The notes beneath the pieces are model-generated. The model saw nothing but the letters and a program-made list of their open reading frames with translations, was not told the origin of the DNA and searched no databases. From Psammoneis japonica (taxonomy: Eukaryota), in assembly GCA_008632985.1 (NCBI GenBank), contig QPGO01000014.1:372001-436000 (forward strand): a stretch of DNA of 64,000 bases. The letters run 5' to 3'. Below, in pieces: positions 3,677-52,319 of this stretch. The translations under genes were made by a program, and so were the position numbers. Each line of letters begins with the position of its first letter. The first letter of the stretch is position 1.

Positions 3677-3699
3677 ATGTTTGTGTTCATTTCATGTGC

Positions 3700-14542: not shown

Positions 14543-14738
14543 TGTCAGCCTGCTCATCCACATGTCGTGTGATGGACAGACTGGATGCGGATGATGGCTG
14601 GACCATCCAGACAGACGAGCAGATCTCTCTGAGATCTGCTTCTCACTTTCTCATCTACTGGCACTCATGTTGTCACAGTCCTGGCACTTTGGGGAGTCTT
14701 TCACACCTCCATCACTGTCGACCTTTGGCATTCTGTCA
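14543..14738 (+). repeat. 5' LTR of Copia-1
   Basis: Direct repeat of 21560-21755, starts TGTCAG and ends TGTCA. Confidence 0.97.
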
Positions 14739-14916
14739 GGTTGTGGCCATGCGCTGTGCCACAGACCTCTGCGCCAAGCTTTCTGTTTCGATTCGATTGT
14801 TTTGTGAGCCGATCGAGCGAGCCTCATCATCTGATCAGACAACTTTTTATCTCGCTTTCCCGGCATTTTTCACGACCGTAGAAACATGCCAGATTTCCAC
14901 GCGTGCATGACCAAAA

Positions 14917-17900
14917 ATGGCTCCACCCACTAAAACCATGGCGTCTTCCGACACCACAAAGCCCGCTCTGTCGTCCATTGCAGAGATCTGCTGCGAATTC
15001 GAGGCACATGCAACGATGCCACATCTACATGATTGCCTGAATGCGATTTATGCAGACTCCACAACTGATCTGGACCCGTTTTTTGATGATCCAGAGCATG
15101 TGCAACCCAAGAAAGATTTCGCGGACATGCTTCGTGATTGCTTCATCCACGAAGCGTTTCCACCCCACACCGCTGATCCCACAGATGTACAATCGATCAA
15201 GACGATTATGGATCAAGCCCCGTTCCGACTTGTTGACTCTCAAAGGATTCGTCCAGTCCGTTTAACGACTCCGGTCTTGTCAAAGCTGATCAAGACGAAT
15301 CTCCTGAACAATGAGCAATCTTTGATTGTTCTCATCTCCACCCAACATGTGTGTGTTGATCCGGACATGATGTGGAACTATCGCAATTGGAACAGTTCTC
15401 TCTTGTGCCCTGCCAGAAGAAACAGCAGCCTCCGTCTTCTTCTCAGAAAACCACAGGACCTGCTACATTGACTGTGACTGACTTGGTCACTGCACTCAAT
15501 GCATGCACGTCGAGCCATGCTCCGCCTTCTACAGCTTCTGCCAAGACATCTGGAAGTGCCACATCCTCCGTAACATCGAAGTACCTCTTCAATCCGAACA
15601 CACTTCCTCCAGATGTTCGTGCACGCTACGACCGCAAAGAAGACGGAAAAGTCACTCTTCAGAGCTCTCTCGTCCCTTACGACCATGGATTCTGTCACTG
15701 TGTTGATGCATCCGATCGCATCATCCTTGGTGATGGCACCCTTTTCATCATGAGCTCAACTCCTGATCAGAAAATGCTGTTCAGGGAACCTCCTGTATGT
15801 CATGACGACTCTCCCCCTGGGATGCGAGCATGGTGCCAAAATTTCCAACGTCATGCCTTTGATTCAGGTTGCTGCGTGCATCCCCTGTGGTGTTTCACTG
15901 AGGACCACGGTGGTGAGAAGGGTTTTGAGATCGGAAACGGCAAGAATGATGACTCACCTCAACGCATGTATGTCCACTGCAAGGAAGCTCAGAGCTCCCT
16001 CCACAAAATCCCATCCAAGTCGGACATGTTCCCCAAGAATGGCAAGCATCATCGGATTGTTGCATCATGCTGCGGCAACAGATGCAAGGCTCTCAAGCAG
16101 ATCATCTACGAGAATCATCCTGCCTTTGATCATGATGCTGCTGGACTCATTGATTCTCATCCCATCCAAGGCAATCGATCATTGATGGACTGCCACATGA
16201 TCTTCAATGATTTCCTGCAGCTACGTGCCTGCATTTTTGATGCGGACTCTACGTTGAACGATCCACGGGAGATGACTGTCTTTGTCAAGAATGCCAAGCA
16301 CTCCAAGTTCTTGTCACGTGCTGCCAGAGATGAACGGAAGTCTCCAGCTGTGCAGAAGAAGCACACGGATGCACAGATTGTCAAGACTCTCTCTGATTTC
16401 CTCCACCAACCGGATGGTCCATCCCTTGCCACTCGTACGACGCAATCCAACCCACGCCGCACATGGAATCGAGCAGATGCTGCCACGCGACGCACACCTG
16501 TCAATGTCAATTCTCTCCAGATCCCTGAGATGCCCCTTCAAGAACCAGTTGATGCCTCTGCCACTGAAGATCCTGGTGCAGAATCTCCACCTCCGGATGC
16601 CTTTGATGCTCTTTGCGACGAATTGCATGAACTCGAGATCCCATCTACGGACGAAGATCGCATTCTTCACCATGCACACTCGGCTTCAGTCTGTAAACTG
16701 AAAGTTGCTCCGAATGAAGCCTCCAACAAACCATGTCTTGTCTGCTCCGGAGAGCATTTGTTTGATGACTGTCCGGTCCTGAAGAACAACCCGCACATCA
16801 AGGGATTCCACATCCGTTTTTGTCAATTCTTAAAGTGGGAAGCAGCCATGCGTGCTTCTGAGTTCCAAGGACCCCAAGGGTCATTGCCACCCCATCATGA
16901 CAATCCTGAAAATCTGCCTCCGTCTAGCACTCCACCCTCGGATTTTCAATCGGGCCGTCGCAGCTGGTTTCAGATCTCCGACGCTGCCCGTTGTCTCCTC
17001 ACCGAGACAAGACTAATGTCAGCAGGATGACCTTGAAAGAGGGACTAACCGTCTCGTCATCTGCCGCTGAAATGCCTCTTTCCTCACAGATTGACATGGA
17101 TGCCACCCCTTTCACCTCCACGAAGATGTCATTTGATGCCAACACGTCACCCGATGATGACCCTGCTCCTCAAGAAGCCACTGTCGATGCTGCTCATGCT
17201 CCGGATCCTTTGGAACAGGGGAGGGAAGACCCAGAAACACCGGTTTTTGAGGAACACATTGATCTCACCTACGATGACATGGCTGTTGAAGATGGTTTTG
17301 CTGCCGTCAATTCTGTTCGTGTTGCTCCGATCGATCCACACCAGGTGAGTCACTCACCTGAGCCGGAACTGCTGCGATCCACTTGTTCTGTCAATGGGGT
17401 AAATTTTGCTCCGAATGAACGTTGTGCTCAGTTGGATGCTGGTGCTGATGTTGCGCGCACAGGCAACCGTGACCTCCTCCATTGATGCCAAGACTTCACT
17501 CCGTCCCATCCCTGTCCCCTTGCTGTCAACCCGGCCCTTGGCCATCAAGCTGTCCCAGTTGGATTCGGCCATCTTCGCATCCCTGCAGAGAACTCTGACG
17601 GCTGTGTTGAGGTCCGTGCACACTGCCACCCACAGATCCAATCTACGTTGGTCGATGAGCGACTCCTCCTTTGTCAAAATGGTTCTCGTCGTGCAGATTG
17701 CAATGTTGACTGCATCCTCAAGTTCCATGATCTCGGCACCTGCAAGTTTGTTGCACGACATCGATTGCGCAAGCATCAGGACATCATTGTCCATGGGAAA
17801 TTGATCAATGGCAATGTTTTACTCACCCTCTCATCCTCCTGGAACCTGCCGATGAATTGGACGCATCCATTGAGCGCCTCAAGACTGGTGACCCCACCTT

Positions 17901-20900
17901 TGCCAATGAGTGTGAAGCGGTTTCTGCGCACATGATTGAAACGCATCGCACTCACCAACATGATGCTCTTCATGCTGAACGCAAGTTGATCCCCCGTGTC
18001 CATCAGGATGTCCCTTTTGAAAAGCATGCAGAGAAGAACATTCCTGTGCATTCTCTCAAGGCCGACACGGAACGCCTTTTGTGGCATCAGCGACTTGGTC
18101 ATCCGACTGATCACCACCTTTGTCATGCCCATGAACATGTTGATGGCATCCCCAAGTTTGCCCACGGAACTTCTCCTCTCGACACTTGTCCTGCATGTGT
18201 GTGAGCAAAGCAGACGAAGGAACCTGCCAGTCTGAACACTGCTCTTGCTGCCACCCAACCATGCCAAGGCCTCACGGTTGATTTTTCTTTCTCTGGCCTG
18301 TGGTCCAAGAACTCGAAGCGTGCCAAAGACCATGTTGGTTTGAATGGCGAGACTTGTTGGATCACTGTCTATGATCATAAAACAAAGCATCTCCATGGTG
18401 CGACCCGGGTCTCCAAGGCAACCCCTCTGAATTGGCTTCGCCACTTTCTGGAAGAGCATTCACCAAAATGTCCAGACAAGCATGCACCCATGGATCAAGG
18501 AGGTGAATTGCATCAAAACCCAGAAGTTCGGCGACTCTTCGAGGATGACTTTCATCATGCAATTCGTCCTGTGGGAAAAGATGCTTCAAATCAGAGTGGC
18601 CCAGTGGAATGCAGTCATTTGACTGTTGCCAACGCCATCCGGGCGATGCCAATTGGCGCCGATTTGCCCACAAAATTCTGGCCCTGTGCTTTTCATCATT
18701 TCACTCGCATCAACAATGCCACACCATCCCGCGGACAACCTGCTGCTCCAATTGCCCTCGCCACTGGTCAGAAGGATGATTTCAAGAACTTCCGTGCATT
18801 TGGTTGTCGAGTGTGGGTGCGTGCGTCGAATCACCGCCCAGCAAAATTTCAGTCTGTCTCTCGCAAGGGAATGTTCTTGGGCTGTCTTCCGGACACTGCC
18901 AAGAACATCCTTTGGTGCGATGCTGAGACATCGCGTGTCAAGCTTGCCAAGCACATCCGTCATGATGAGGGCATGAATGATCTACCCCATGACTCTCTTC
19001 CACCGAATGTGGTGCACTTGGAACGCACTCAAGATGGCAAGGCGTTGCCTGCTGAGACTGAAGAATCCACAATGGATGAGTTTCACTTTCATGGGAATCC
19101 TTTTGCCAAGACCATCAAGCGTGCGATGAAGGGACCATTTGCTGATCCGACATTTGGACTTTCCTTGGCTACGGACGATCTCCATCGGCGAGCATTTGTC
19201 TCTGACATTAAGTGTGGTTCTCCTGCTGCGCGTCTTTTCTCTTCTTTGAAGGCTGCCCGCAACAAGATCAAGGGTGCGTGTGTCGCATCGATCGATGATC
19301 ATCCCATCTTCATGGCAGAGGAGGCCATCACACGTTTTCAACAAGTCTGTGATTCAGGAAAGACTCACTTTGAAATCGAATTCACGCCGGAACGTTGACT
19401 GGACTCCCAGGCTCTCCAACGTGCCCTGATGGAACACAATGTCTGTGCACCGACTCCTGACCCTGATGATGAGCATGTCCCGGAAATTGCTGCTGCTGAC
19501 ATGCGTGCCATTGCTGCCATCCGTCACCCTGACATTGATTTTTCTGATGTGGACAATGATGACGTCCATCCGCCGATTTATGTCGACTACGACAATGGTG
19601 TCGTCAACATTTGTGCCATTTCTTCTCATGCGATTGCTCCAGAGGAACAAGCGTCAGGTGCTTTCACTCGCCATCATCTCCAGAAATTGGACACCTGGCC
19701 CGAATGGCATGCGGGTGAATTCAAACAACTCGACCAATTTCATGAGTTGGGAATGTTTGGTGCACCAATTAAACGTCCGAAGGATGCCACAGTCCTTCGT
19801 CCGCATTGGCAACATGACCTCAAGCATGATGGCACGCGACGCTCTCGACAATGTTGCGATGGATCCCCACGTGCTGCCTCGATTCTCCACCGTCTTCACT
19901 TGACCCACTCCTCTTGTGTGGAACAACCTGTCCAACGCATGTTTTTTGCTCTTGCTGCGACCATGAGCTACCATGCCTTTGGGTGGTGATGCTCGTGATG
20001 CATGTGCACACTCCCCGCGACCATCACACCCCGTCTATGTTGCCATCGACGAAGCACATGCCACTTGGCACAAGGATCGGTTTGGTGTTGATTTGGACAG
20101 GACCACGGCACTTCCAATGCAACGTGCACTTCAAGGACACCCAGAAGCCGGCGTGCTCTGGGAGACCCACATCAATGGCATTTTGTCTGATGTGAATCTA
20201 CTTTTTCGCAATGCTGCTCATGACAAATGCATCTGTTCTGCTGCTTTTGAGGGACACAAGATCTTGCTCCTCCGCCAGGTTGATGACTTCTCCCTTGCGT
20301 GTCCTGAAGAGTCTCTTGCGATCAAGACATGTGACAAGATTGGCAAAGCTCTTCAATTGGAATCGGAAGCTTCTCCGCCTTTCAAGTGTCTTGGTGTGAT
20401 TGAAGAATTCAATGGTGTGGATGTCCATCAATGTGATGATTCTATTGGTGTTGCTGTTCACAGCTACATTGATCGGGTTTGTACTTTGCATGGATGGTCG
20501 ACACCGACAGATGAAGAACTCGTCGATGACTGCAAGGCTGCGCCCATTCCAGTTGACTCTGTTCGTGAACTGTGCACTGCCATTGGTCCAGCTGAAGGAA
20601 CCCCGGAACATGCGGAGTTGCAACAAGCTGCTGGCTTTGGGTGCCACACTCTCCTTGGTGAATTGTTGCGGCGCATGTTGTCTGCCGATTGGACATTGGC
20701 TGTGCCATCACCACTCTTTCCAAGTTCTCCACCTGTCCTGCTTTGGTTCACCATGATGCACTCAAGGGTGCATGCAAGTGCCTTCGACGCACCAAGCATT
20801 GGGAATTGAATTACAAGAAGCCCGCCCGAGACTCAAGACCACCCGCCTGCCCCTTCGAACGTCTTGCTCCGGACCTGACACTACCTTCGTTCCCTTTCCC

Positions 20901-21384
20901 AGAACATGACCATCAACTTGTTGCTTTTTTGGATGCTGCATGTGGCAATGACCTCCGTAACTGTCGCTCTACGACCGGCCATGCTTGCATGTTAGCCGGT
21001 GCTGCTGTGTCCTTTCAATGCAAGACCCAATCGGTGACTGCTGCGAGTTCTACGGAAGCTGAGTTCTGTGCTGCTGGCACTGCTGCCAAGCATGTCCTTC
21101 ACCTTCGTCACATCCTGCATGATTTGGGCTTCCCTCAGACGAAGGCAACCCCGTTGTACATTGACAACGAATCGGCGATCAAGATCATCAATCACTCAAT
21201 CCCGACCGAGTGATCCCGTCACATTGAGATCCAGTTTTTTGCGATCCAAGAATGGAAGGAAGCGGGCAAGATTGTCGCAAGACATGTTCCTGGCATTGTC
21301 AACCCCAGCGATGACCTTGCCAAGGCCCTTGGCTGGGCACTGCACGCTCGCCACACTCGACGCATGATGGGACACTGCTGTTGA
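14917..21384 (+). pseudogene. Copia-1 gag-pol, disrupted by stops and frameshifts
   Basis: Zn knuckle 'CLVCSGEHLFDDC', protease 'QLDAGAD', 'LWHQRLGH', integrase 'DQGGEL', RT 'RQVDDF', RNase H 'FLDAA...SSTEAEF...IDNESA'. Confidence 0.93.
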
Positions 21385-21559
21385 CATTTTTTTTCCGCGG
21401 TGGCCTCCCTGCTGCGCATTGCCCCCTTGTTTGATGGCGCATTGGGCATGGACACTTGTCGTGTCCTGTGTCTGGTCTCTCTGTTTCCCCACATCATCCC
21501 TGTTCTTTGGTTTGATCTGTCCCATTTTCTATGTTGAGACATCACAGATCAGGGGAGGG

Positions 21560-21755
21560 TGTCAGCCTGCTCATCCACATGTCGTGTGATGGACAGACTG
21601 GATGCGGATGATGGCCAGACCATCTAGATAGACGAGCAGATCTCTCTGAGATCTGCTTCTCACTTTCTCATCTGCTGGCACTCGTGTCATCACAGTCCTG
21701 GTGCTTTGGGGAGTCTTTCACACCTCTGTCACTGTCGACCTTCGGCATTCTGTCA
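21560..21755 (+). repeat. 3' LTR of Copia-1
   Basis: Direct repeat of 14543-14738, preceded by the PPT and followed by the TSD. Confidence 0.97.
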
Positions 21756-22350
21756 TTTCATGGAGAGGCTCAGCATTGAGAACTTGGAGCTCTCCCCACT
21801 CTTGTCACTGACCTTTTTTCAAGTGCCTTGTCCTTGCTGCTTGTGGCTGCCAACCTGTCAAATCTTGTCCTTGCTTGGCAACTTTTTTCCACCAGACGAT
21901 TTTCTTTCCAAAAACAGCTGGAAAGGAACAAGCACACAAAACACCTGCACACAGCAGGTCATGCTTCCTGGCTCTCCTTTTCTCATTGAGAGCTTGGAAC
22001 TCTTGTCACTGTCCTTTTTTCTCTGCCTCCCCCCGTTGTTCATGTGAAAATGAAAGCAGTGTGGTCACCCAGCTGGAGCGCACGCACAAAAAGTGGAAAC
22101 TTGTTGTGCCGAGGAGGAAGAAGAGTGGTTTTTTTGTTTCTCCCACAACTTTGCTTCTCTTTGCAGCAATGACAAGCTTGATCTTTTCTCCTCTGATTGA
22201 CTCCCATGTTGATGGCCAGCAAATTTCCTTGCATCGCAGCCCACTTTTCACACAGCCACTCTTGCACCCAGCCTGGCGGCTGCCCCTGCGATGGGCTGGA
22301 GTCTGGCTGCACCTCCTCGGTGGGAGGTTGGACAGTGGCAACAAAGCTGA
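21756..22350. repeat. Decayed block, right part, continuation of 12900-14542
   Basis: 21826-21985 is a diverged direct copy of 14366-14526. TA and CG are depleted. Confidence 0.6.
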
Positions 22351-22702
22351 CAGTTTATACGAACATTGTCAATGACTGAGGTCTGAAAATTATGTTCGTT
22401 GTCGAGATCGAGGGGTTCAAATTAAGGCTAACCCTAACCCTAATCGGTCATGACGCAGTGAGTCTTGCGATGATGGCGTGAAGGACGACGCATTCAGTCT
22501 TGAAACACGAACAGATGAATCGTGACTTTGCCGCCATCATTCAAAATCAAAAACGCAATCGTGTGTCGTGTTGGAACGCGAAGCGATCCGCTCATGGTTG
22601 ACTTCGAATCGAAACGGCATACGATTGGTTCATAATATAATGTGAAAAATAGAGAAGAGAAGAATATTACCACTTCCTTTGACACCAACCACAAACTACG
22701 AC

Positions 22703-35358: not shown

Positions 35359-35599
35359 GGTGGGTGTTGGTTGGTGGTGCGGTGGGCTTGTGCTCAGTGC
35401 GTCCGGTCCTTGATGCTTTGATGCTGTCGATGGTCGACTTCCAACTTTTGGGCAAATCTGGGCAAGTGCAAAATAACGACAAAGGCCAGCTACGGCGGTT
35501 TTGTATGAGTGGCTACATAAAATAGACTGTGCATGCTTAAGTACAAAGATAAATTTCTGCGCAAATTCAAAATTCAAAAACGACATGCGCATGTCGTGC

Positions 35600-38500
35600 T
35601 TCAGTTTGTTGGAGTTGTGTTAGACATCGATGAATGTCATGGAGATCTTGCAGTCTTCTGCTGGTGTGCTTGGGTCAATTGCAGACAAGGAGCACAGTGT
35701 GGGTTGTCGATTGGCTGAGACACAGAGCAGAGATGCGGCATGGCGAGCAAATTGCAGTCATGACTCTTTTTTGTGCTTTGGCTGTCCCACATCTTGTCGT
35801 TGGTCATTCTTCACTCATTTGACCATTGATCCAGCTGCAGACATGAAGCTTCAAAAAATGCTAGACAAAAGTCAACCACACCACAGCCAGCTCACAACTC
35901 ACGACACACCAGTGAGGGCGCTTCCTCAGTGCATCAGAGGACTTCATCGTGACGTTTGTTAGAAGGGCATCTGTTGCTTTGCTGCTGCCACTGCACGACA
36001 AAACATGAAGACAACCCACGTTGACAATGGGGCAGATGCATTGAAAATTTGGCGTGCTGGTGTGGCAAACCAGTGCAGCAGCAACCTGAGGCCAAGCTGA
36101 GTTGTCCCCCCCTCTGATGGGGGACAAGTGGTGGCATGCACAACAATGTTGCCAAGACTCCATGTGGTCCAAGGGGCACGAGCACAAAAACAGAGCAGCA
36201 GCATCACTCTTCCTGGTCAAGGCTGTCAACTGGGTTTTCTGAGCATTGATGGGGGCAAGGAATGGCCAAGCATTTCTTGTGATTGGCAGCGTCGTGACAC
36301 TTCTGTTTTCAATTTTGGCAGTCCAAGCACTTCCGTTGCGATTGCATCAGACACACAGCAAAGTTTCTCTGACACCACACAATTCATGGCCAAAATTTTG
36401 GGTTGTCTGGCTGCAATTTGTCTTCCCTTGATGGAGGAGTTAATTTCTCTCCTGTCTTGAGTCTTTTTGGCTTTTGAGTTCCTTCAGATGGAAGAGAATC
36501 AGTTTGCCTCAACGTCGGCATGGGGGGGGCGAAAGAGAGAGACCATCTTCTTGCTGCTGCTGCTGCTGCTGCTGCTGCCACCACCACTGCTGCTGCTGCT
36601 GCTGCGGACCAAGTGTGCATTTGCGGTTGTCCTCAAGTGACTCAAAGCCCATTGTTTCATGTCCGTCATTGTTGATCAAGCATTGCACCCCACACCCATG
36701 AATCCATGTGCGGGCTCTTCATTGTTGCTCAACATTGCTTTGCTCTCTTCACCACACTTGCATCTGCTGCTGTTGTCCTCTTTGGTGCCATTGCAAATGG
36801 AAAGCCATCTCAAAATTAGAAACGGCAGCAGCAAAAGCAACAGTCATGTGTGTTTGCTGTCTTCACAGTTTTTCAATGACTTGGTTTTGACACACTCCTC
36901 CGAGTGTGCTTCTTGCACGCAATGCGAGGAGGAGAGCCATGCATCATCTGTCCATCGGCGGAACCAAATTCTTGATGCATCTGCACTTCTGTCGGCTGGG
37001 ATTCTGATTGAAATTCTTTTCATGCCACGTTGAAAGCTGGTTGCTTTGAGGATCACAGGCATTGCATGGATGTTGGCCAACCACAGATTGGTTCAGCAGC
37101 ACTTGTTTGATTGTTGTGAATGTGGTTGACCCTGAAACTTCTTGCACTGTTGGTTTCCAGCACAAGTGCACAAGAAAACCTCTGCTGTTTGGTGCACTCA
37201 GCAGATTCAATCTGGGCAGCTTGCAATCTGGTCACTGGTGGTTTTGTGAAAGGCTTTTGACCAGACTGCTGTTGCCACTCATCAACAGATGCTCTCTGCT
37301 TGCATTCTGTTTGAGGTGTTGGTTTGGACTGGACATTCAACCAGCACATCAGTGAGACACTTGGAGCTCCTTGGACATGCGTGAGCTTTGGCTTGTCAGC
37401 TCACCCAGTTGGGGCAACTTAACACATTCTGCACCTCCTTTTGGGGATGCCCAAACTGGAGCAACCATCTGCGGCTCTGACACCTCCAGCACTTCCTTCT
37501 GGACACACAGTCCACACCCTTGATGTCAAGTGCTTTGCTGGACTCCATCAGCCAAACACAGCACTGGCCCCGCCAGATGGGTTCATTGTTGATTTGCACA
37601 TGCTGCCATTTCAGGCAGGCTCTGCTCCACCCAGTGGCTCTCCTGAGTTGGTGCTGGCTGCAAACCTGTCCTCCTGTTGTCTGTTGCTTCTGCATTCATT
37701 GACAATCGCTGCACTCAAGATGCTCAATGGTGGTGTGCAGCAGGTTGCCAAACTGTCTGATGGCACCTCTGCTGTTGTCAGGCCCACCACCCAGGAATGC
37801 CACGGCAGCTGTGGCATCATCCCAGCAACCCTCCTGAATCAGCCTGGTGTGCAATGGCAATCCAACCCACTGCCAACCCTTGTTGACATTCTTGACCCTC
37901 AGAACTGTCAGAAAATGTGGAGGTCAACAGATTCCATGGTCATGTTGAGACCACGTCCCTCCTCTGCTCTGAACAAACTGCCAGGCTCATTCAAGCTGCT
38001 GCCTTGTTCACAGCAGCTGTGACAGGAGACAGCCAGAGGTCGAATCTTGCTGCTGATTGAAGAGGTTCATTTAAGGTGAGCTCCACAAGTCTCATGGCTT
38101 TGCCCCGCTGTTGTTCATCTCAGCCAACCATCCAGCAACTGCCTGTTTCTGATGCAGTGACCAAGACTGAAATTGCAGCCAGGGATCAGACTGTTTTTGC
38201 TTGCAGCACTGCTGCTGAGAGCAGCCCCGACCATTGCAAATCAACAAATTGACAGGCAAGTCTGGTTGCTGGAGGTGCAGAGCTGCAGACCACCTCTGTT
38301 GCAACTCCCAAACCAAAAAAAATGTTTGTTCTGACATGAACAAGCCACAGATCCATGAGAATGGCACCAAGAGCCGTGAGGGTGATTCTGTTGCCACAAC
38401 TGGAGTTGCTCCAATGCTGGCAACCTCCTCTGATCATCTCTCCTGTCTCCCCAGTCCAAATCCAGAGGCAATGACCAGCTTGACAGTCTCATCATTGACT

Positions 38501-39000
38501 CAATCAAGCAATCCCTGGGAGGATCTGATGACAAACATGAGAGCAACTCCAAGACCATCATGACTCTTCACATGCATGTGCGCACAGCCCACATGTCAAG
38601 CAACCTTGTTTCTCAACTGCCCATCCCCGTGAGCAACACACTGCCTCACATCATGCTCCAACTTGGCCTCCCCAACATTGCATTCAACTCATGGCATCCA
38701 TGCCATCATTGACATCAGCATCATTGCTCTTGAATGTGGCAATGGTGGCTGTTGGATGCCTGTCACAAAGGTGCATCCCAAGCTGGTCAAGAGAGCATGA
38801 CCTTTCATGCCAAGAAGGAATGACACTCACCTGTCACACTGTTGGGTGGTGCAGTCCAGAAGGACAAAAAGACCAAACAAGTCAATGTGTCTGCAAATCT
38901 CTCCACAGTGTGTTGGAGTTCTGCCCACCCTGCAACACCAAGAACGGGCATGCAACGTCTTTGAAAATTGCCATTGGAAAAGAGTGTCTCCATCCATTGT
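35600..39000. repeat. Heavily decayed TpA/CpG-depleted block, unidentified
   Basis: Abrupt compositional change at about 35590, TA nearly absent, no recognisable domain. Confidence 0.55.
36552..36605. repeat. Interrupted (TGC)n trinucleotide tract
   Basis: tgctgctgc...caccaccac...tgctgc. The cac interruption is compatible with TG/CA-type decay. Confidence 0.85.
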
Positions 39001-39255
39001 ATCATCGGTACGAGCTTCACTTCGACATGCAAGCTTGTCACGGTGGATTTTGACGACAACGCAGTGGAATCCAATCTGCTCGATTGTGATCCATTTCCTG
39101 TGGAATTCCTCACAGCAGCACATTCAACAATGTTTGATTAGAGCGTCATCTGCAGAAGCAAGTTTGTATACAAAAAAAACGAAGGCAGAGGAGCACACCC
39201 AACACAAGCTATTTCGATTCTGTTTTTTTTTTTTTAGCCAATTACACACTAGAAG

Positions 39256-40712
39256 CTATACGACATGATAATTGACATGAGTTCTTCGTTGAATGCCTTC
39301 CACCATGAGTTCCATTTCAGACGACGGCAGAGCCGCGCTCGGTGGAGCCGATTGATGCGCCTTTTCGGTTGTTGTTGGCAGTCTCTTGCGGACCCGCAAC
39401 GTCTTGAAAATAAGAGACGCAATAAAAAGCACAATGCCAGCAATATGTTGCAGCGTACAGGCATTGTCAAACATGAAGAAACTCAAAAAGAGCGTCGTGG
39501 CTTTTCGTGCCGTCGAAGTAATGGACATGGTGAGTGCCCCAAAATTCTTGGTAATGGCCGCACTGCATGAGGAACCAAAGAATCCCATGGTGGAAAAGAG
39601 CAAAATGACAATCATTTTGGACATCACGGTCCATGTCGGATTGCGGTCCTCCAGGGGCATGTCCATTTCTCCATAGGTTCCCGGTTCCATGAGGAATCGC
39701 AGTCCCGCCCAGAGGTCGCCCTTGACGGCGGCGGCACCGGTAATGGCCACGAGTGCAATCGAGTACATTTTGAAAATAAACTCGTCTTGACCAACCCCGA
39801 AATTGTTCATGATGGATTCGCTCATGTTGGAAATGGCGCCATCGCACAAGAGTGAAACCGTCTGCGTGAATTGAACGAGTGTGTGTTGAACGAGTGTGAG
39901 TGAGTATTCTGAAATAGCCACAAAATACCTATTCACTCCTCTACCGCGCAACACAGTAGTACACTACTACTCACCAACATTATTATTCCCCAATGATGAA
40001 AGACAGCCGAACTATTGGCATCGGCATGCATAAAAATGGCCAACCCCGACACCATCAAAAGCACCACCACATAGTCCACTAGCTTGTACCGTTTCCGTGA
40101 CACCAACACCCCAAACAGCATGGTAAAGACGACCCGACTGCTCTTCATGAGCGTCTTGGCGGGATAATTAATATACTGCATGGCCATGTTGGTCATGCCC
40201 AAATCGACGGCACGTAGCAGTGACAATCCGAGATACAACAAAATGGGCACCTTGGCGTTGGACATTATTGACGATGATGATAATGATTTTGTTTTCTTTT
40301 GTTTTTCATAGACATAGGTTCTTAACAAAAAGGACCAAAAGGTGTATCCACTAAATTGCATGGTTGCCAAGAACAATCCCAACTCTCGGTTGCAAATGTG
40401 AACCGAAATCAATTCTTGTAAAAAACCATAAAGCAAGGAAAATAAAAAGACACCCGTCGCGCACACAATGAATTGTACTTTTCGACTTAGATGTGAAATA
40501 TCCATACCCAACACCAAGACAGGTTCCGATACCAAGTCTTCAAAGAATTCCAAATCGGATTTGGAATTGGGAGCCGACGGTGGAGGAGCTGTAGTGGTTG
40601 TTTTGGTCATGACTCCGGCGGCCGCGTCGGCATCGTCGGGTTTGATGCGATGTCTCATGAGTTTCTTCTTCTTTTTAGAAATTGTTGTTGTGGGAGTTTT
40701 TGGTGTTTGCAT
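39256..40712 (-). CDS. SLC35B3 (PAPST2)-like transporter, copy B, one intron at about 39863-39975
   Basis: Same motifs and intron position as copy A, with diverged termini. Confidence 0.87.
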
Positions 40713-41261
40713 AGATAAAAAGAAATCAAAGCAGTTGCTGTTTGTAGTTGTTGTTTGTAAATGTTGGATGAATCAACGAGCGATACGGTTGCTTCTAAAC
40801 TCAACGATACTGTTGTTGAAGTTGTTGCTATTGTTTGTCGTTGTTGGATGACTCAACGATGCTGCTGCTTCTAAACTCAACGATGCTGTTGTTGCTATTG
40901 TTGTTTCATCCAATTGTATGCCAATCAAACAATGATTTTGAATGGTTCGTAAACGAACGGAGCTGCCAATAATGCCAGGAGGTATTGCGACGAAAATTTT
41001 GTTGTTGGTTGCAACCCCTCGACGACGGTTTTTTGGCTATCGGGGTTTGAAAAATGAAATATGAATCTTAATTGGTTTATATAATTTATGTTTGAAAAAA
41101 GTGTCGTAACGCACAGTATTGAGTTGGCGTAGACAACATCCGTTGAGCGTGGGTGACCCGAACCCTGATGACGTCGACACACATAATAAATCATGCACGA
41201 GTCGTCGTCGTGCGCGTTTTGCACAGATTTTGTCGAGCGCCGTTGGATTTTGGGAACCACC

Positions 41262-43757: not shown

Positions 43758-44895
43758 ATGAACACCCATACCATTATCATCAACTCCGAGAAGGAATCGC
43801 CTTCCTCGAGAAAACGAAGCGATAATACTCGCCGTCCGACTTTGATGGCACGATTCCACAGGGAGGACCTCGATCCGTTAGCTCTACCCACTGTGCCACG
43901 CAGAAACACAAAAACGAAACGACCAATGAGAAACCTCCAAGATGGTGATGACGATTTTGCTCAGGAGATTCCACCAACTGTGTGTTCCACAAGGACCAAA
44001 ACAACAAGGACGACCTTCTGTTGCAAAAGAAAAAGGAGGCTGCATGCCACAAGCATGGCGAGAGGTGTACTCTTCAAGAAGTTCCAGTCACGCATCCGTT
44101 GCCTCCCACTGCAAACAAGGAAAGCAAGAAGAAACAAAATCGTCTGCCCATTGTCGATGGACTTCACGAGGCGAGAGCAAGAAGGAAGAACGCCAAGAGC
44201 TCCACGACAAAGGGAGCTGCTGCTGGCCTGACTAGTGCTTCAGAAGCGCTGAGTGAGGCTGCGTTAATGTCGGAGGAGCAGCGATACGCGCGGCCAGGAG
44301 CTTTTCGGATGGGCGGCGGCGGCGAATCATCATCCTTGCAAGCACCCGAGTCTGAAGCATTTCTGTGGATTCAAACTCAGAAAGAGCGCCTGTGGTCGAA
44401 AACAGCCGCCTCGATGAAAATGTCATTGAAGCCACGATTGCACCCGATGTGGATGAAGCCGTGGAGAACGCACTCCAAGAAGAACGGCAGCGACAAGAAG
44501 CAATGGAGCGAGAAAGAAAAGGCAAACTTGTCCGTGCTACCAGAGTTGAAACAGAAGGCAAGGCAAGAAGGAAACTGATCGCTAGAGTGCAGCAGTCGCT
44601 CTGCTGTTGGTTGGAATCGTTTTAGCCACTACATTGACCCTTCTTCTACCCAAGGATGACACACCGACACCAACACCCGTTGTCGGCAATGCCACAAACA
44701 ACAGCACACCCGAAGAAGAAGAATTCCCGGACGTGAATCGGACGTGGGAGAAATTTGGACAAGACATTCACACCCCCGTTCCGGCACTTGAAGACGGATT
44801 CGGCGCCTTTGTTTCATTGGCCGAAAATGGTGGAGTGTCTCTTTCGTCCAGCACGCATCGTCTGGCGGTGAGTTCCACGGGATCATCGGGATTTC
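43758..44895 (+). pseudogene. 5' part of a single-pass membrane protein gene disrupted by Copia-2 (start approximate)
   Basis: Frameshifted ORFs with an 'RPGAF' motif, TM-like 'LVGIVLATTLTLLL', and the start of the repeat region 'WEKFGQDI...FGAFVSLAENG'. Confidence 0.65.
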
Positions 44896-45120
44896 TGTTA
44901 CAATGTCCAGAGAATGGACAACAGACAGAGTGTGTTGATGTCACAATGGATGTGGGGCGATTCTAGGTGCTAGTGTTACAGCTGCCAAAGAGAAAATTGT
45001 GAGGAGAGGAGACGCTCTTCGTCTGCTCTCCTAGTTTCCCGAGTGACGTTTGCACTGATGACGCAAGTCTTTGCAACGGCGGGTCACAATGACTGTCTTG
45101 ATGATTTGACAATCTTCACA
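44896..45120 (-). repeat. 3' LTR of Copia-2
   Basis: Direct repeat of 52088-52313 with TG...CA ends. Confidence 0.97.
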
Positions 45121-45157
45121 CTCCCTCTCATTGTGTCTTGCAAGTTAAAGTCTAAAC

Positions 45158-48100
45158 TCACCAACCCATCACCAGAGGACGTAAGGTCTCTAGGATCTCA
45201 GCCGCAACCGGCTTAGTGAGACAATCCGCCAGTTGGTCCTTGGTGTCGATGTCGTGTGTCGAAATTTCTTTTCGAGTGACACAGTCGCAAAAGTGGTGCA
45301 ACTTGACATTCAAGTGCTTGGTTCGTGGTCTGCACTTGTGCACGCGCGCCATCTCTGGTGCCCCGCCATTGTCTTCAAACACTTTGCAATGGATCTTGGG
45401 CGTGGACGTGTTGAAAGGGAAGCCGTGTCGCTTGAGTTCATTCAGCATTTCCATCAAGGGCACAGCTTCTCGCAGAGCACACGACAAGCCTGTGCATTCA
45501 GATTCTGTGCTGCTTGAGGCTGTCTTGGTTTGCAGTTGAGATTTCCAAAGAATGGGACAGCCCGCGTAAGAAATGACACAACCGTGTCGAGAACGTGCTG
45601 CACCTCGGTCTTGGCTTGCCTCTCGTGGGTCCCAATTCCCGCTAAAATCTGCATCCACGTAAACCTCCAAGTCCTTTCCCTTTGCAGGTTTCAGGACTGC
45701 ACCCTTGTCTCTGGTCTTGTGTGAACATCTGCCAAGCCACCGCATGGCTTTGGCGTGCTCAACCTTGGGAGCTGCAGTGAACCGTGCGCATTGGTGGGTG
45801 ATGCACGCCATGTCGCTTCAAGTGCATTTTTCCAAGCAGCTCAGCTTGCCAACAACCGATCGGCAGTTGAAGGAATCATCAAACGGCTCCGAATCGGAGT
45901 GCCTTAATGGCATCTTGGAGGATGCTGCCGGAGTGTCCTTGGGTGCGGCACTTGGTGCATCCAGTCGCAAGTCCTTGAGCATCTGATCGATTGGGTGTGG
46001 TTGCGTCAAGTGGACCGTGCCATCGTTCTTCCTCACGATGTTGATGCCGAGAAAATCCTGTGTGTCCCCTTCCACAGTAATGTCGAGTTTTGCCTCCTTG
46101 AGTTCCTTGATGATCTGATTAATTTCTCTCTCATCAGGACCGGCAATCAGCGAGTCGTCTGTGTGTAGAAGGCAAATGGTTTTCCCGCGATAGAACACGC
46201 ACTCATCAACCTTGGACTGCTCGAAACCAAGCTTGTTGACGAGCTTGTTGACCAGACATTTGTTCCAAACTGTTTTTGACCGTGTGCGTTTCGACGGAGC
46301 TTCAGGACGTAATCCTTGGTGTTGCCGTCGACTAACTCGAAGCCCGCTGGCATTTCCATGTAGAGCTCCTTGTCTGCCGGCGCTTGAGGGAAGGCTAAAA
46401 CGCAGTCCAATTGCTTGGAGTGCCACCCGTTCATTGCTGTCAGGGTGAGTGACATTTGAATTGAGTTTCGTGATGCCACCGGTGCGCACGTCTCTTCATG
46501 ATCCTTTCCTTTCCTCATTTTTGAACCGTCGACATTCAAGCGAGCCTTCCACTTCTTGACCTTGCGAGTCTTGATGTCGCGCTTGCGCTTCATCTGCCAC
46601 ACCGCTGGCAGCACCTTGCTGTCTCTTTTCACCTGTGATCGTGGAATGATGGAGAAATTGCCATTTTCCATTTGATCCGTTACCTCCTTTTGCATGGCTT
46701 TCAGGAACTGCACGCGATCCGGTTCCTTCACAGCCTGGTGCATGTACATGGTGTCTGGATCTGCTGATGCTTTGTGGGCAAGGAGGGGATTCTTGTCTTC
46801 TCTAAGTTCTTGTGAGTCTTGGGGATGCATTGCTGCCAAACACAATGTCTCACCCTCGACATCGTTTCTTGTTTCGGAACTGATTTCGGCCGTCATGGCT
46901 TCTGTCAGTCTGCTGACCGGTCGGCTCTTTCGCCCTGAGCGAGTCACTTTTGGTGCATCGGCACCGTTTCGTGTCTCGTCAGACTCGCGCTCTCCTGGAG
47001 CCACTTCTAGAGATTCAGTCGCTGGCGTAGGTCCACCCTCATCTTCCTGAGGTTGCATGTGTGGACTGTCTTGCCTCGACGCCACTTGGCCAGTGGCCAC
47101 TGCAGTGTTTCCGCTCTGTTGCGGTCCCGGATTTAGGTCAGCCCATTGAACTCGTTTTTGTCGTTTCTTGCCTCGCCTGGCTCCCTCTGAATTTGCTTTC
47201 CGCTTCTTCGTGGTTGGAGCTGGTGTGGACGCCGTTTTGGCTGCTCCACTGGTGTCAGCTTTCGTCGCCTCCCTCTGAGCTACGAAGCCGGCTTTGATTT
47301 GCCATTGCGAGTCCAGCTTGTCTTGCCGCACCGTGTGGAAGGAGGGATCAAACTTGACATGGAATTGTGGGCCAACTAGAGCAGTCGCTCGATCCAGCAC
47401 GAGCGCCACATTCTTTCCATGCACTGGGCTTTGGCCTAGATGGACTCCGACCCTTGATCGTTGCTTCCATTTGTGGTGTGGCAGGTTGGATTGCAAGGCG
47501 CTGTCAAGAACGTACACTGGGCATCCGAAGGGTTTCCAGTGTTTTGGGTTGGCAGAGACTCGGGTCTTGGAGAATGTTTGCATGGGGGACAACCTGTCCT
47601 TGTTTTGGAAACTCGGTGCGTTGTTAATCGCGTCGTTGGCCATCCTTGTTGCACAAGGCCACAGATTCGCTGTGATTGCTTTCTTCCACCGGCTTTGAGC
47701 GTGCATTGACATGCTCCTGGCGAGTTCTTGGAGCTCGCGCATGCGACGCTTGGCCAAGCCGTTCTGGTGGTGAGCGCCCACCGCTGCGAAGGTGAGCCGT
47801 TGTCCTTGTGATCGACATGCAAACACCCAGTCGTCAGCCTTGAAGATGCCATTGTCTGCATGGCAGGCTTCGACTGTAACGCCACACGTCTTGGCGCATT
47901 GCTTGAAAGCTTGTTTCCCTTCTAACGTCTCCGCTGCCGATGCCGTCTTTTGCAGGTGCACGTGTCCCATTTTGGAGTGTTGATCAACGTGCACCGTAGC
48001 ATGCTTGTGCCGTTTGGTGGTTGGCCATCCGGTCATTTGAGCAATCAACCCCGGTGCAGGAGATGCAAGTTGGTCTACAGAGACGACTTGGCCTGGGCGT

Positions 48101-51100
48101 GTGGGTTTTTCCGTCGGTTGCTGGTTGCGTCGTGTCTTGTCTCGCCACTTGCGCTCAGCAGCCTTGGCATGCAAGCATGCAGAGCAGACGGGTACATTGC
48201 ATTTTGCCAGCTTCTTTGGCAGCATGCCCAATCTTGCCATCCATTGCAGTTTTGTAAAACTCATGTGGCCGAATTGTTGATGGCATCATAGGAGCAGTGA
48301 TGCCTCGGCAGAGCCTTGGCGATCCTCTTCATCTTCCACCACTGCTGGTGGCTTGACGGCTGCTCCCTCTGAGGTGGAACTTGGCATGGTGCCCGTGTCT
48401 CCCTCTTGCTTGCCATCCAACGGTGGTCCGTCTAAGTTGAAATCTGCTGCCGTTGACCCGTCAATTTCCCCAGGTGCCAACCCTGAGTCTTGCGACTGGT
48501 CTTGGTTCATTGGTTGCCATTCATCACGCGGCGCGTCAGCATCGCATTCAACCTCAGCATCATCATCTTGATCCTCATCGTCGCTCACGACTGCTGCCTC
48601 ATTGGCTGGCACAGGATCCTCGACTTCTTCTGCTGGGTCGACATCCGCCTCCGCACAGAATGCTTCATGCTTTTGGCATCCGGGTGCTAGATGAAATGTA
48701 GCCACGTTGGTCATTTCACTCAGCGGTGTTGTCAGCCGGTGTTTCTTCTGGTTCCAATGGAGGGTCACCTGCCTTGAGTCAGTCTTGCTGCCCGTGCCTT
48801 CCTTGGGTTTGCTGTCCCTTTGGGTCTTAGCCCAGTGTTGAGGGCTCAGCAACCTGACCTTCCCACTTGGTGCGTAGAACAAATTGGGCATCTTGAACTC
48901 ATGCGTCCTGCCCTCGTCGTCGTTCCATCTCCATGGCAGGGCGCCGATCTTCACCCCGGTGGTTTTCGAACCGCCAAAACCTTTTGTGGTTCTGTTGCAG
49001 TCTCGTAATTCACCAATGAAGTCTTCCGCGCAATCGGACATGCAACCTGCAGCCCGATTGTCAACCCCGACTGGTCCTGAGTCAGTGTCGAAGGTCACCG
49101 CATGCTCCATGATGCTCTTGTTTTGAGCCTGCATTGCGACCACCACCATGGCCAGTGCTGCGGCATGGTGTCGTGTTCGCCTGGGTCTCTTGAGTTTGTC
49201 CATAGATTGGTGGAGTCTTCGAATTCTCCCTCTTCTGGACAAGTCGGTGTTGGTGTCGATCGCTTCAATGAATTGTGCCACTTGTTCTCCGACCTGGCGC
49301 ATCTTGCTGGTCAAGCAGCGGCAACCCTTCCGCAGCTTGCACCATCTTTTCTTCTTGGGTGCGCAGTGCGGGGAGTGTCCTGGGTTGTCGTTGCAGTGGA
49401 ACATGAGGCAGATGATTAGGACCGCGGCGGATGGAGAGCAGTGAGCGCAGGCCATGGTGCGATCTGTGATGATGAGTGCTAAAACAATGTTCATGTAATT
49501 GCAGGCTATCGCCTGCCATGCGAATGTAGCCGTTGCTTTAATGAAAGCGCAGCACAACATTGTGAGGTCGCCAATTGCATGTCCATCATCACAGCAGTTG
49601 CAACTGTGGCTGTGCTCTAGGAGTCATTCGGATTCGTCGTCTGATGGCTCCTTGTCGACTGCTGCCTTGTGTGCCTTCGTAAGCTTGAGACGTCGTTTGC
49701 CATCTTGTTTGCGGCAGAACTTCTTCTCCCGTTCGTTTCCGCTCTTGCCATTGGCCGCTCTCTTCTTGTTCTCATCCGGGTCACACAAACAATTCTCTGG
49801 AGTGTGCTTGCGCCACTTTCCAGGGCATTTCCCTCCGACGTCCTTGTGGCAGTAGCAGCATTTTACACCGTTCCAGTGCCTGGGCTTGGAGATCATGTCC
49901 TTGGTTGGGCGCAAGTTGTCCTTCATCCATTTGGGCATGTTTCGCTTGTCACCATCCTTTCCTTTCCCACGCTTGTCGTCCTTTCTGGTGTTCTCAGCAG
50001 ATTCGTGCTTCTCAGCTCTTTTCTCAATGCCTTCGACTTTGGCTTCCAGAGCAAGTGTCTTCTCTTCTTCCTCGCCAGGCGCGCACTCCACTTCTTCTTC
50101 TGAACCAAATTCTTGCACTCATTGTCCGCAAGCGTCATGAGGTGATTTGGCGCAATGTCCTTGCCGTCCTCGCGTTCCTCTTGCTTGTTGCCAATGCACT
50201 TGGTAAAGTTCTTGTCCAAAGCAGCGAGGCATCCTTTGAGTGAATTCGTCAGGAGATCCTCTGTGGTTTCGCCACGAGACCTCAGCGCAGCGAGAAGGAG
50301 AGCCACGTGCTGATTGAACTTCGTGACATCGTGACCCATCGTCGGCAAGTGTTGGTCAAGCTCAGCGAGTTTCGCACGGATCGTGCTCATGGTTGCATTC
50401 GTGCCCAGGTGCGACTCTTGAATGATGACCTTGAGGAGCAAACATCCAGAGATCTTGTCTCCGATCTTGCAGGACGCATCGTGGACATGTGCCTTGTCCT
50501 TCCCAGCCTTGGAGATTGAGTTGATCAGACAGTGTCCGAGCATGGTAGCATCTTGAGCTGCACGGCATGGATTCCTGATGTACGACTCCTCGTGTCTCTT
50601 GATGCGTTCCATGCTGATCTCACCATAGTTAGTGAGCAAGTTTGAGTACGTCGTGTCCGGATCTTCAGGGCGATCCAGGAAACTTCGAAGTTTCGAAAAA
50701 TATTTAAGAGATTCCTAATTCCTATCAATATATCTTTACGTGGACCTCGTGTAGGATGGACAAAAGCTTCGAACATTGTGAAATTTCTTTCTCTATTGCC
50801 CTTTATACTGCCCCAAAGAAAGTTCGAAGTGTTCGAAGTTGTTCGAAGTGTTCGAATACTTCGAACACTTCGAAGTACTTCGAACACTTTCGAAGTTTAT
50901 AATTCATAAATAAAAGTAAGGCAGGGAGACGAATGATGATGTCACGATGACATCCGTAGCCGAATGATGTACGTACTGCTGGTAGGGCCCTAGTACAACA
51001 CGCGCGATGCGGTACCGGTATGACATCTCACGTTGTTGTTTTGTGCTCTCTTCTACTCGAGTCTCGAGCATCTACCGGTATCAATGAGATGATGAGATAC

Positions 51101-52059
51101 GGTACGTACAATCGAAGCGACAAGTACAGGCAGCTACGAGATGATGTACTACAAGCTTATTACGCGCGCTTGTGGCTAAGAGTAGGCCTACGTAGGTTTT
51201 CTACGCCAAAGCACGACAAAACAACACGTGAATCCTTTGCCGTCGTTCATTTGTCAACCACGAAGAATTACCAATCCAATGAGACATATATGATCCGCAA
51301 GTACCTCATTGATATAGCTGTACCCAAATGGCTTGGTAACTATTCCGGGTGGGCCCGAACTCGTTCGACGGAACGTGTCATCGTGGTGGTGTCGCGTGCC
51401 AAAAATCGGTGGTTGTCAATTCGTAATGATATATAAATGACTAAATAAATAATTAAAATTCAACTTGTTCGAACACTTCGAACTTGTTCGAATAAGTTCG
51501 AACTTTGTTCGAATAAGTTCGAAGTGACCAAAGGGCAATATGAAAAGTTCGAAGAATAAGTGACTCAAATCAAAATCTTTGGAGGGCAATATGTTTGCGA
51601 CAAAACTTCGAACACTTCGAACAATATTCGAAAGCTTCGAACACACAACATATTTGTTCGAACTTTTATCTATTGCCCCTTGTTTATAAAGTACCAACAA
51701 CCTACGAGCTCTGCACGTAGAATAATTTGCAGAAATGTCATGGAATATGGAATCTTTCGAAGTCTTCGAAGTTTCCTGGATCGCCCAGGGTCTTCAGGTG
51801 TCATAAGGATGCCTGTCGTCGGGTCATTCCATCCGAGCAGGCTGGCCCTGGTTTCAACATTCTTGAGGAACTGAAAGAGTTCGCCTGGAGTGCAGTCGAA
51901 TGTATCTCCACTTAATGCTTCCGAGCCATTTTCGAACAGCTTTCGTCCAGCACTCTTGCGAAAGTCAACTGCTCCCGTAATGGCTTGAGCTGGAGCAAGG
52001 GCGAACGGAATGTCCTCATCGGACGTTGAGGACAATGATGCACTTGAAACGTCTGACAT
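45158..52059 (-). pseudogene. Copia-2 gag and pol, disrupted; gag is split by the MITE
   Basis: gag from ATG 52059, protease 'GVDNRA', integrase 'HADNGIF...HQNGLA', RT 'KARLNVDG...HTDDS', RNase H 'YVDADFSG...EDN...DQLAD.LTK'. Confidence 0.93.
50669..51785. mobile_element. Non-autonomous TIR element (PIF/Harbinger-like MITE, 1117 bp) nested in Copia-2 gag
   Basis: Perfect 22-bp TIR GGCGATCCAGGAAACTTCGAAG, 3-bp TSD CAG (50666-68 and 51786-88), subterminal TTCGAA arrays. Removing it restores the gag frame 'ILMTPEDPEDPDTTYSNLL'. Confidence 0.92.
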
Positions 52060-52087
52060 GATTTTCTTCTTCAGCGCAGAGGAAGCG

Positions 52088-52313
52088 TGTTGTGATGTCC
52101 AGAGAATGGACAACAGACAGAGCATGTTGACATCACAATGGATGTGGGGCGATTCTAGGTGCTGGTGTCACAGCCACCAAAAGAGAAAATTGTGAGGAGA
52201 GGAGACACTCTTCGTCTGCTCTCCTAGTTTCCCGAGTGACGTTTGCACTGATGACATAAGTCTTTGTGACGGCGGGTCACAATGACTGTCTTGATGATTT
52301 GACAATCTTCACA
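52088..52313 (-). repeat. 5' LTR of Copia-2
   Basis: Direct repeat of 44896-45120. Confidence 0.97.
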
Positions 52314-52319
52314 GATTTC

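Follow-up and report, generated by a model that had tools for sequence, protein, structure and literature searches.

Evidence for post-insertion TpA hypermutation of Copia retrotransposons in the diatom Psammoneis japonica

What process can strip a single dinucleotide, TpA, from two retrotransposons while sparing the genes beside them, and does it act before or after the elements enter the chromosome? The question is raised by a 64,000-nt stretch of the genome of the diatom Psammoneis japonica (assembly GCA_008632985.1, contig QPGO01000014.1, positions 372,001–436,000 of the forward strand), which is the window analyzed here; all positions given are window positions. The window contains two long terminal repeat (LTR) retrotransposons, Copia-1 and Copia-2. 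A preliminary description, made from the letters alone, had proposed that TpA is converted to TpG or CpA on both strands of these elements by a repeat-targeted defense resembling fungal repeat-induced point mutation (RIP) run in reverse. On the evidence that follows, we have high confidence that a real TpA hypermutation took place at the DNA level after the elements had inserted.

TpA loss and the fate of conserved tyrosine codons

Observed/expected (O/E) ratios of TpA, CpG, TG, and CA were calculated for each region (Table 1), together with a 1-kb dinucleotide profile over the window. The profile contains several blocks nearly without TpA, the rest of the window being mildly low. As had been described, TpA is nearly erased in both Copia elements (O/E 0.13 and 0.21) relative to the neighboring genes (0.52–0.60). 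Copia-1 has 56 TA dinucleotides against 244 expected at gene level (binomial p 1e-48), and the part of Copia-2 from 44896 to 50667 has 63 against 171 (p 1e-21). The O/E of TG and CA in the two elements is 1.35–1.67, a rise that matches the loss of TpA. The extent originally assigned to the pattern, 14543–52313, holds for both Copias and is otherwise too narrow, as TpA-poor DNA was also found in blocks 1, 2a, 2c, and 3 (Table 1). Across the depleted blocks the TpA O/E is 0.01–0.22, and their edges were resolved within ~100 bp. In the Copias the loss of TpA far exceeds that of CpG (O/E 0.13–0.21 versus 0.69–0.77), which points to processes that can be separated. The trinucleotides TAA and TAG, which normally occur 8–9 times per kb, fall to 2.4–3.2 in the Copias and 0.8–1.3 in the old blocks, and because these stops have been erased, long open reading frames (ORFs) persist in every frame. 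Every stop that bounds the four pol ORFs of Copia-2 is TGA.

Both elements encode gag-pre-integrase, integrase SH3, and RVT_2 domains in that order, which identifies them as Ty1/Copia elements (diatom CoDi-like); their gag-side ORFs gave no Pfam match at E ≤ 0.001 or at E ≤ 0.5. Among named sequences, those closest to Copia-2 come from the diatom Fragilaria crotonensis; Copia-1 belongs to another lineage and was compared with its own relatives. All eight peptide motifs in which Cys or His had been read in place of Tyr were found in the elements to which they had been assigned. Conserved Tyr positions of Copia-2 were then defined by two methods. If Tyr was present in at least 80% of 30 aligned relatives, the column was counted as conserved; this resulted in 16 columns, of which Copia-2 has Tyr at five, His at six, and Cys at three, compared with 236 of 271 columns kept for other conserved residues (Fisher p 1e-6). 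Placing 120 relatives on the DNA by tblastn resulted in 30 conserved-Tyr codons, which now read TGC (8), TGT (6), CAT (4), CAC (3), TAC (6), TAT (1), TTC (1), and TGG (1), such that 21 of the 30 specify Cys or His. The 22 conserved-Tyr codons of Copia-1 read CAT (5), CAC (3), TGT (4), TGC (4), TAC (3), and other codons (3), with Cys or His at 16, whereas conserved F, D, W, K, G, and P were kept at 154 of 172 codons (Fisher p 2e-13). Cys, which arises by A-to-G change on the sense strand, and His, which arises by T-to-C change, occur in ratios of 14:7 in Copia-2 and 8:8 in Copia-1; the two directions are thus about equally common, as the strand symmetry originally proposed would have it.

The elements might instead be intrinsically poor in TpA, through lineage composition or selection against UpA and with no hypermutation at all, and the mild under-representation of TpA throughout the window (~0.57 in genes) would be in keeping with this. 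The relatives speak otherwise. Of 72 metagenome loci that code for Copia-2 relatives, 71 have a TpA O/E of 0.43–0.97, a proportion obtained with search patterns that favor intact copies and so not an estimate of prevalence, and intact-looking relatives keep both Tyr and TpA rather than sharing the Cys and His residues. Catalytically conserved Tyr residues have been replaced, and the LTR pairs described below diverged only at TpA- and CpG-type sites. Intrinsic TpA poverty is therefore scarcely credible as the explanation. Selection against UpA, considered as a candidate in its own right, was rejected because no such selection could drive a pair of LTRs apart solely at TpA.

A few relatives depart from this picture. 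Tyr content is 2.1–4.7% in 119 of the 120 protein relatives of Copia-2, the exception (P0073) having 0.11% Tyr, 3.4% Cys, and 4.8% His; where its relatives have Tyr, this protein aligns Cys in 41% and His in 23% of cases, whereas a control relative keeps Tyr in 70%. Copia-1 was compared with 102 relatives of 250 aa or longer, and five of these are Tyr-poor (0–1.1%) and Cys/His-rich. The one exceptional metagenome locus (L066), a 1.7-kb contig, has a TpA O/E of 0.28, a CpG O/E of 0.06, and a TG O/E of 1.82. The Tyr-poor, Cys/His-rich Copia pol or TpA-poor records (P0073, P0256, P0262, P0274, P0286, P0298, and L066) look like hypermutated elements that were called as genes, and judging from their composition the same mark is present in other public records.

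Divergence of LTR pairs and the context of change

The two LTRs of one element are copies of one template and are identical at insertion. In the Copia-1 pair (196 columns) nine events separate them, consisting of four TG|CA doubles, three TA|TG or TA|CA pairs, and two CG|TG or CG|CA pairs. The Copia-2 pair (226 columns) differs by 11 substitutions, of which five are TG|CA, four TA|TG or TA|CA, and two CG|TG or CG|CA, plus one indel. The TG|CA doubles are what is expected from one ancestral TA resolved independently in two copies. Pooled, all 20 substitution events lie at TA/TG/CA or CG/TG/CA sites, 16 being TpA-type and four CpG-type, and neither a transversion nor a transition outside pyrimidine–purine (YpR) steps was found in the 421 aligned columns of the two pairs. 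YpR steps make up 49% of LTR positions, giving a chance of 7e-7 for 20 of 20. In a purine/pyrimidine alphabet the LTRs of Copia-2 are 99.6% identical, versus 92.5% in four letters (226 columns).

Direction can also be read from an inverted segmental duplication. The left edge of block 3 falls within one of its arms, so that changes in this block can be polarized. Wherever the DNA of both arms is normal, the two have similar numbers of TA (10/9, 7/7, 16/19, and 24/22) and the changes are undirected. In the last 180 bp, which lie within block 3, five TA and 12 CG in the normal arm stand against no TA and four CG in the arm of block 3, the direction in this small sample being 5:0 for TA to TG or CA and 6:1 for CG to TG or CA. 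An excess of polarized substitutions in TpA context, as hypermutation at this step predicts, is thus present in the LTRs and in the paralogous segment alike. The ORFs of the duplication arms at 337–1203 (+) and 35002–35619 (−) have no Pfam match.

The TpA change came after Copia insertion, on chromosomal DNA, and struck either strand at random. Its rate exceeds that of change at other positions by a factor of at least ~100, and positions outside TpA and CpG are essentially unchanged. These data bear directly on editing of the retroelement RNA or complementary DNA (cDNA) before integration, either by an ADAR-like A-to-I activity on double-stranded RNA or by a cDNA deaminase. Such editing would be compatible with the survival of long ORFs, and ADAR-type enzymes favor a 5' U (Discussion of Mettrop et al., bioRxiv 10.64898/2026.01.13.699255). 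It would not account for LTRs of one template that differ at 16 TpA-type sites, for the Cys:His ratios given above, in which both sense-strand directions are represented, or for the presence of the mark in flanks that are not part of an element and in a paralogous, host-like segment, and we consider it highly improbable.

The surviving TpA dinucleotides show that the process is fastest at ATA/TAT. With the strands folded, survival relative to gene density rises from 0.07 where the preceding base is A to 0.24 for G, 0.28 for T, and 0.39 for C (chi-square p 2e-12). Among tetranucleotides in the Copias it is 0 for ATAT, 0.02–0.03 for ATAC/GTAT, and 0.06 for ATAA/TTAT, compared with 0.3–0.5 for CTAG, CTAC, and CTAA. 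Conserved Tyr codons derived from TAT were changed in 19 of 20 cases, versus 18 of 27 for those derived from TAC (p 0.03). In the old blocks, which are close to saturation, TTAA is the best survivor, with about nine sites. TG and CA outcomes follow one another at random along the elements (runs z −1.5 to +0.6), as they do in the relatives, and by the runs test no strand-coordinated clusters of the kind left by single-strand deaminases were found among the TG/CA outcomes.

The preliminary description knew of no account of such a pattern. One does exist: according to a 2026 preprint, Bigelowiella natans acquires the same TpA signature through de novo mutation (Mettrop et al., bioRxiv 10.64898/2026.01.13.699255). 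As given in its text, two regions of integrated viral DNA received 231 of the 302 de novo mutations; of these 231, 230 were A-to-G or T-to-C changes, and all of these transitions were at TpA. The rate, ~1e-7 to 1e-6 per site per generation, was ~1000 times background; the region derived from a nucleocytoplasmic large DNA virus (NCLDV) is single-copy and has a TpA O/E of 0.45. The bursts, called from Illumina NovaSeq data, occurred in only 11 of 15 lines, and reverse transcriptase and DDE domains are over-represented among 324 low-TpA coding sequences of B. natans.

Depleted blocks, flanks, and spared repeats

The process is confined to transposon-derived blocks or to blocks without a family assignment, with sharp edges and with genes spared. 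Blocks 1, 2a, 2c, and 3 are complex sequence rather than satellites, and in them CpG is also reduced (O/E 0.13–0.30). No Pfam match at E ≤ 0.001 or at E ≤ 0.5 was obtained for the ORFs of the three CpG-and-TpA-poor blocks or of the Copia-2 flanks, and a purine/pyrimidine self-comparison of the window revealed no kinship among these blocks or with the Copias. Decay of CpG to TpG or CpA runs alongside the TpA change as a slower, secondary component, seen in the four CpG-type LTR events, in the CpG content of the old blocks, and in the 6:1 ratio of the paralogous segment; the oldest blocks have lost CpG and TpA both. A 135-bp direct repeat (14398–14532 and 21856–21990; 89% identical, with transversions) brackets Copia-1 outside its target-site duplication (TSD), indicating that this element inserted into DNA that was already repeated and already poor in TpA and CpG. 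Block 3 lies between two paralogous UAA-family nucleotide-sugar transporter genes (30532–32227 and 39259–40772, minus strand), which are ~8.7 kb apart and 70–80% identical in DNA.

The flanks of Copia-2, 1.1 and 1.25 kb long, are as depleted of TpA as the element itself (Table 1). Because the TSD is intact, the two flanks were contiguous before insertion, and depletion has apparently spread from Copia-2 into ~1.1–1.2 kb on each side. Such a spread resembles a chromatin domain, and the mark coincides with CpG-decayed blocks; both observations would suit a passive bias in which a lesion or polymerase error at TpA is poorly repaired in compact methylated chromatin, its effect building up with time, and no dedicated enzyme is involved. 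The LTR pairs imply a very high specificity that is difficult to reconcile with such a bias (16 TpA-type events and none outside YpR steps), a terminal inverted repeat (TIR) element amid the same domain is untouched, and the bursts in B. natans occurred in only 11 of 15 lines (Mettrop et al.). Together these three points argue for an activity that is switched on. Damage of the ultraviolet (UV) type would moreover give C-to-T change at dipyrimidines, none of which is seen in the LTRs, and passive bias is in our estimation improbable. Two further candidates were discarded, namely UV photoproducts as such, for the same lack of dipyrimidine C-to-T change among the LTR differences, and GC-biased gene conversion, which would favor all changes from A or T to G or C and would not turn CpG into TpG.

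Repetition is not the trigger, since both the segmental duplication and high-copy TIR elements have been spared, and in this respect the proposal of a repeat-targeted, reversed RIP is not supported. The arms of the duplication (~1.7 kb, ~90% identical) differ by 159 transversions, 37 TpA-type changes, 37 CpG-type changes, and 100 other transitions, which is an ordinary spectrum. The TIR element nested in Copia-2 has a read depth of ~1500, versus ~58 for single-copy sequence, and contains 4–12 TA per 100 bp, versus 0–3 in Copia-2 on either side. A second TIR element, resembling a miniature inverted-repeat transposable element (MITE), lies in a stretch of normal TpA content, and both are present at 25–30 times single-copy depth (run X1, described below). 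Internally, both are rich in short repeats of the TTCGAA type. Either the TIR elements arrived after the episode of mutation or they are not recognized; an unmutated TIR element inside a mutated Copia-2 hints at episodic action. RIP itself was rejected on these grounds and because TpA is here destroyed rather than made.

The sequence itself might be in error, if a modified base at TpA (and 5-methylcytosine (5mC) at CpG) were misread by a long-read base-caller and the consensus then picked CA or TG. Such an artefact would reproduce the random choice of TG or CA, the sharp edges, and the joint loss of CpG. A search found three read runs of one sample, of which X1 is a deep, clean set and X2, which shows GT..AG skips, looks RNA-derived. 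Contigs of X1 have a k-mer depth of ~58 (~30 where haplotypes differ) and reach 315 kb. Of the 31-mers sampled from 44001–54000, a stretch that is 63% Copia-2, 65% occur exactly in X1; only 37% of this stretch lies outside Copia-2 proper, from which we infer that at least ~44% of Copia-2 words are present letter for letter in X1. The contigs that X1 gives for other copies are separated from the window by transitions at 371 places and transversions at 65, and at single-copy depth they show TG/CA patterns of their own. Among the 40 places listed out of 505, 24 are in Copia-2, and these comprise 14 TA to TG/CA or TG to CA exchanges in either direction, five CpG-type changes, two other transitions, and three transversions. 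Public protein records and a metagenome contig show the same mark, and the B. natans signature was called from Illumina NovaSeq data (Mettrop et al.). A base-calling artefact is consequently very unlikely. Run X2 has next to no cover on Copia-2, and nothing was drawn from it. An X2 contig differs from the right flank of Copia-2 at 45 places, and at 44321–44397 X1 contains two haplotypes at depths of ~31 and ~33, of which X2 has only the non-window allele.

Elsewhere in the window, the ABC-B transporter of the host has named full-coverage matches exclusively in diatoms, at 50–63% identity. A homologue search with the ORF at 57825–59849 found none. Many IQ calmodulin-binding motifs occur in the ORF at 61399–63999 (+), which includes tandem repeats of 54–105 bp at 63140–63695, and IQ motifs also occur in the neighboring ORF at 57651–59846 (+).

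Table 1. Features of the window and their dinucleotide composition (observed/expected ratios)
Feature	Position	Strand	TpA	CpG	TG/CA	Remarks
Copia-1 LTR retrotransposon	14543–21755	+	0.132	0.69	1.67/1.42	LTRs 14543–14738 and 21560–21755; TG..CA ends; 5-bp TSD TTTCA
Copia-2 LTR retrotransposon	44896–52313	−		0.72–0.77		LTRs 44896–45120 and 52088–52313; TG..CA ends; TSD (G)ATTTC
Copia-2, left part	44896–50667		0.211	0.77	1.35/1.56	
Left flank of Copia-2	43801–44895		0.218	0.95		CpG normal
Right flank of Copia-2	52314–53560		0.215	1.0		CpG normal; 421-aa ORF, no Pfam match
Block 1	2901–7300		0.06 (core)	0.30 (core)		
Block 1, core	3300–7000		0.057	0.30	1.69/1.85	
Block 2a	12901–14542		0.01	0.13		Adjoins Copia-1
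Block 2a, measured part	12950–14390		0.012	0.13	1.76/1.80	
Block 2c	21756–22400		0.073	0.29	1.55/1.50	Other side of Copia-1
Block 3	35601–39200		0.04	0.24		Left edge between 35580 and 35659
Block 3, measured part	35660–39100		0.038	0.24	1.83/1.84	
Four gene stretches			0.52–0.60 (~0.57)	~1.0	1.08–1.33/1.07–1.21	
Nested TIR element	50668–51786		0.79	1.52		In Copia-2; ~1.1 kb; 35-bp terminal inverted repeats
MITE-like element	57119–57440					44-bp inverted ends; depth ~1600–1900; in normal-TpA stretch
Inverted segmental duplication, arm 1	39–2437					Partner 32757–35834; ~1.7–2.4 kb, ~90% identity

Mechanism and comparison with known systems

On balance we favor a localized TpA hypermutation that proceeds by adenine deamination in the nucleus, within targeted chromatin. 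A nuclear enzyme would deaminate adenine to hypoxanthine at TpA steps of that chromatin, and the hypoxanthine would be copied as G, such that a hit on the A of the top strand would give TpG and a hit on the A of the bottom strand CpA. The activity would be switched on in episodes on silenced or foreign chromatin, to which the enzyme would be recruited by the chromatin state or by a guide. Several points weigh against this reading. Only end states are seen, and everything about the process is deduced from them rather than from de novo events; the polarization comes from two LTR pairs (421 columns) and one short paralogous stretch. The three CpG-and-TpA-poor blocks are without a recognizable family, and their transposon or foreign origin is assumed. 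The flanks of Copia-2 could be older targets instead of marking a spread, and the nested TIR element may be immune instead of younger. X1 may be the assembly's own data, in which case it lends no independent support, and its platform is not on record. The preference for ATA/TAT does not obviously fit an enzyme of the ADAT2/3 type, A34 of tRNA sitting in a Y-U-A-(G/A/C) loop.

The chemistry is the most tentative part of the proposal. The window gives no evidence on it, since attack on A and attack on T yield identical products: product words were compared (ATGN versus ACAN), as were the products of Tyr codons (TGT 10 versus CAT 9), but TpA is its own complement, and for this reason sequence cannot separate the two. 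Adenine deamination, which follows the preprint, is accordingly put forward as a possibility with somewhat less than an even chance of being right. In the alternative, thymine is the base attacked, a modifier of the TET/JBP kind making 5-hydroxymethyl- or 5-formyluracil at TpA, which mispairs with G and gives T-to-C change. DNA of dinoflagellates carries hydroxymethyluracil preferentially at TpA. All of the sequence evidence fits thymine attack equally well, and since CpG and TpA both end as TG or CA in the oldest blocks, the two losses could be variations on one pyrimidine-directed theme. The loss of TpA in the Copias, however, far outruns that of CpG, as expected of separable processes, and the only study of the signature favors an adenosine deaminase, on grounds that are equally indirect (Mettrop et al.). 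Thymine attack appears to us unlikely.

A broader conjecture, to which we would give a little less than even odds, is that diatoms, chlorarachniophytes, and perhaps far more eukaryotes share a TpA base-editing defense, in which a nuclear enzyme acts episodically on foreign or silenced chromatin, fastest at ATA/TAT, without regard to copy number, and with a spread of ~1 kb. If true, the enzyme would be a natural editor of chromosomal A:T pairs, and the defense would be the second of a RIP-like kind, opposite in direction and differently triggered. As the signature had been reported once before, in one rhizarian alga, its presence in diatoms, which are among the most abundant marine primary producers, would mean that the process is old or recurrent across distant eukaryotes. 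The enzyme might then be sought among genes common to both lineages and absent from lineages without the mark. Any mechanism has to be post-integration, random with respect to strand, hottest at ATA/TAT, independent of repeats as a trigger, and separable from CpG decay. The findings also carry a warning for annotation: with TAA and TAG erased, ruined elements keep long ORFs and enter protein databases as Tyr-less "hypothetical proteins".

Among known systems, RIP, 5mC deamination, and editing of the APOBEC or ADAR type had already been set aside as explanations of the pattern, a judgment that the divergence of the LTRs and the hits on both strands uphold. Fungal RIP likewise hypermutates chromosomal mobile DNA by transitions at particular dinucleotides, acts on both strands, ruins coding capacity, and may leak into flanks. 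Its direction is the opposite, however, as RIP attacks C and makes TpA from CpA, whereas here TpA is destroyed and TG and CA rise; RIP is also triggered by duplication, whereas duplicated and high-copy sequences are spared here. Deamination of 5mC likewise has TG and CA as its products and is probably the second, slower component here, but it cannot touch TpA, and in the Copias CpG is largely intact and TpA largely gone. ADAR hyper-editing and APOBEC3 are likewise enzymatic deaminations directed against retroelements; they act before integration and on one strand, whereas these LTRs diverged after insertion and both strands were hit. The substrate of ADAT2/ADAT3, homologues of which are the candidates proposed for B. 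natans, is likewise an adenine after U or T, and activity on DNA has been reported for BjADAT2 of amphioxus and TbADAT2 of Trypanosoma, as cited in the preprint (Mettrop et al.). The ATA/TAT preference found in P. japonica has no obvious match in the anticodon loop.

The closest parallel is with B. natans itself. No report of a TpA to TpG or CpA signature in diatoms was found in the literature searched, outside which most subscription journals lie, and the words diatom, CpG, LTR, and retrotransposon do not occur in the main text of the preprint. The two cases have in common that change is almost exclusively A-to-G or T-to-C at TpA, giving TpG or CpA on either strand, that it is confined to foreign or mobile DNA independently of copy number, that its rate is orders of magnitude above background, and that it appears episodic. 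They differ in that B. natans is a chlorarachniophyte, and thus a rhizarian, whereas the host here is a diatom, a stramenopile, and in that the process is known here from end states, with no de novo events. The targets here are LTR retrotransposons and additional blocks, near saturation, with a TpA O/E of 0.01–0.21 versus 0.45 for the NCLDV-derived region. The window adds features that were not found in the text of the preprint, namely the proof of post-insertion change from LTR pairs, the ATA/TAT hot context, co-occurring CpG decay, the apparent spread of ~1 kb into flanks, and a spared nested TIR element. The hypermutation described here is probably of the same kind as the localized TpA hypermutation of B. 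natans, and it brings a new lineage and new targets to a phenomenon described once, in 2026.

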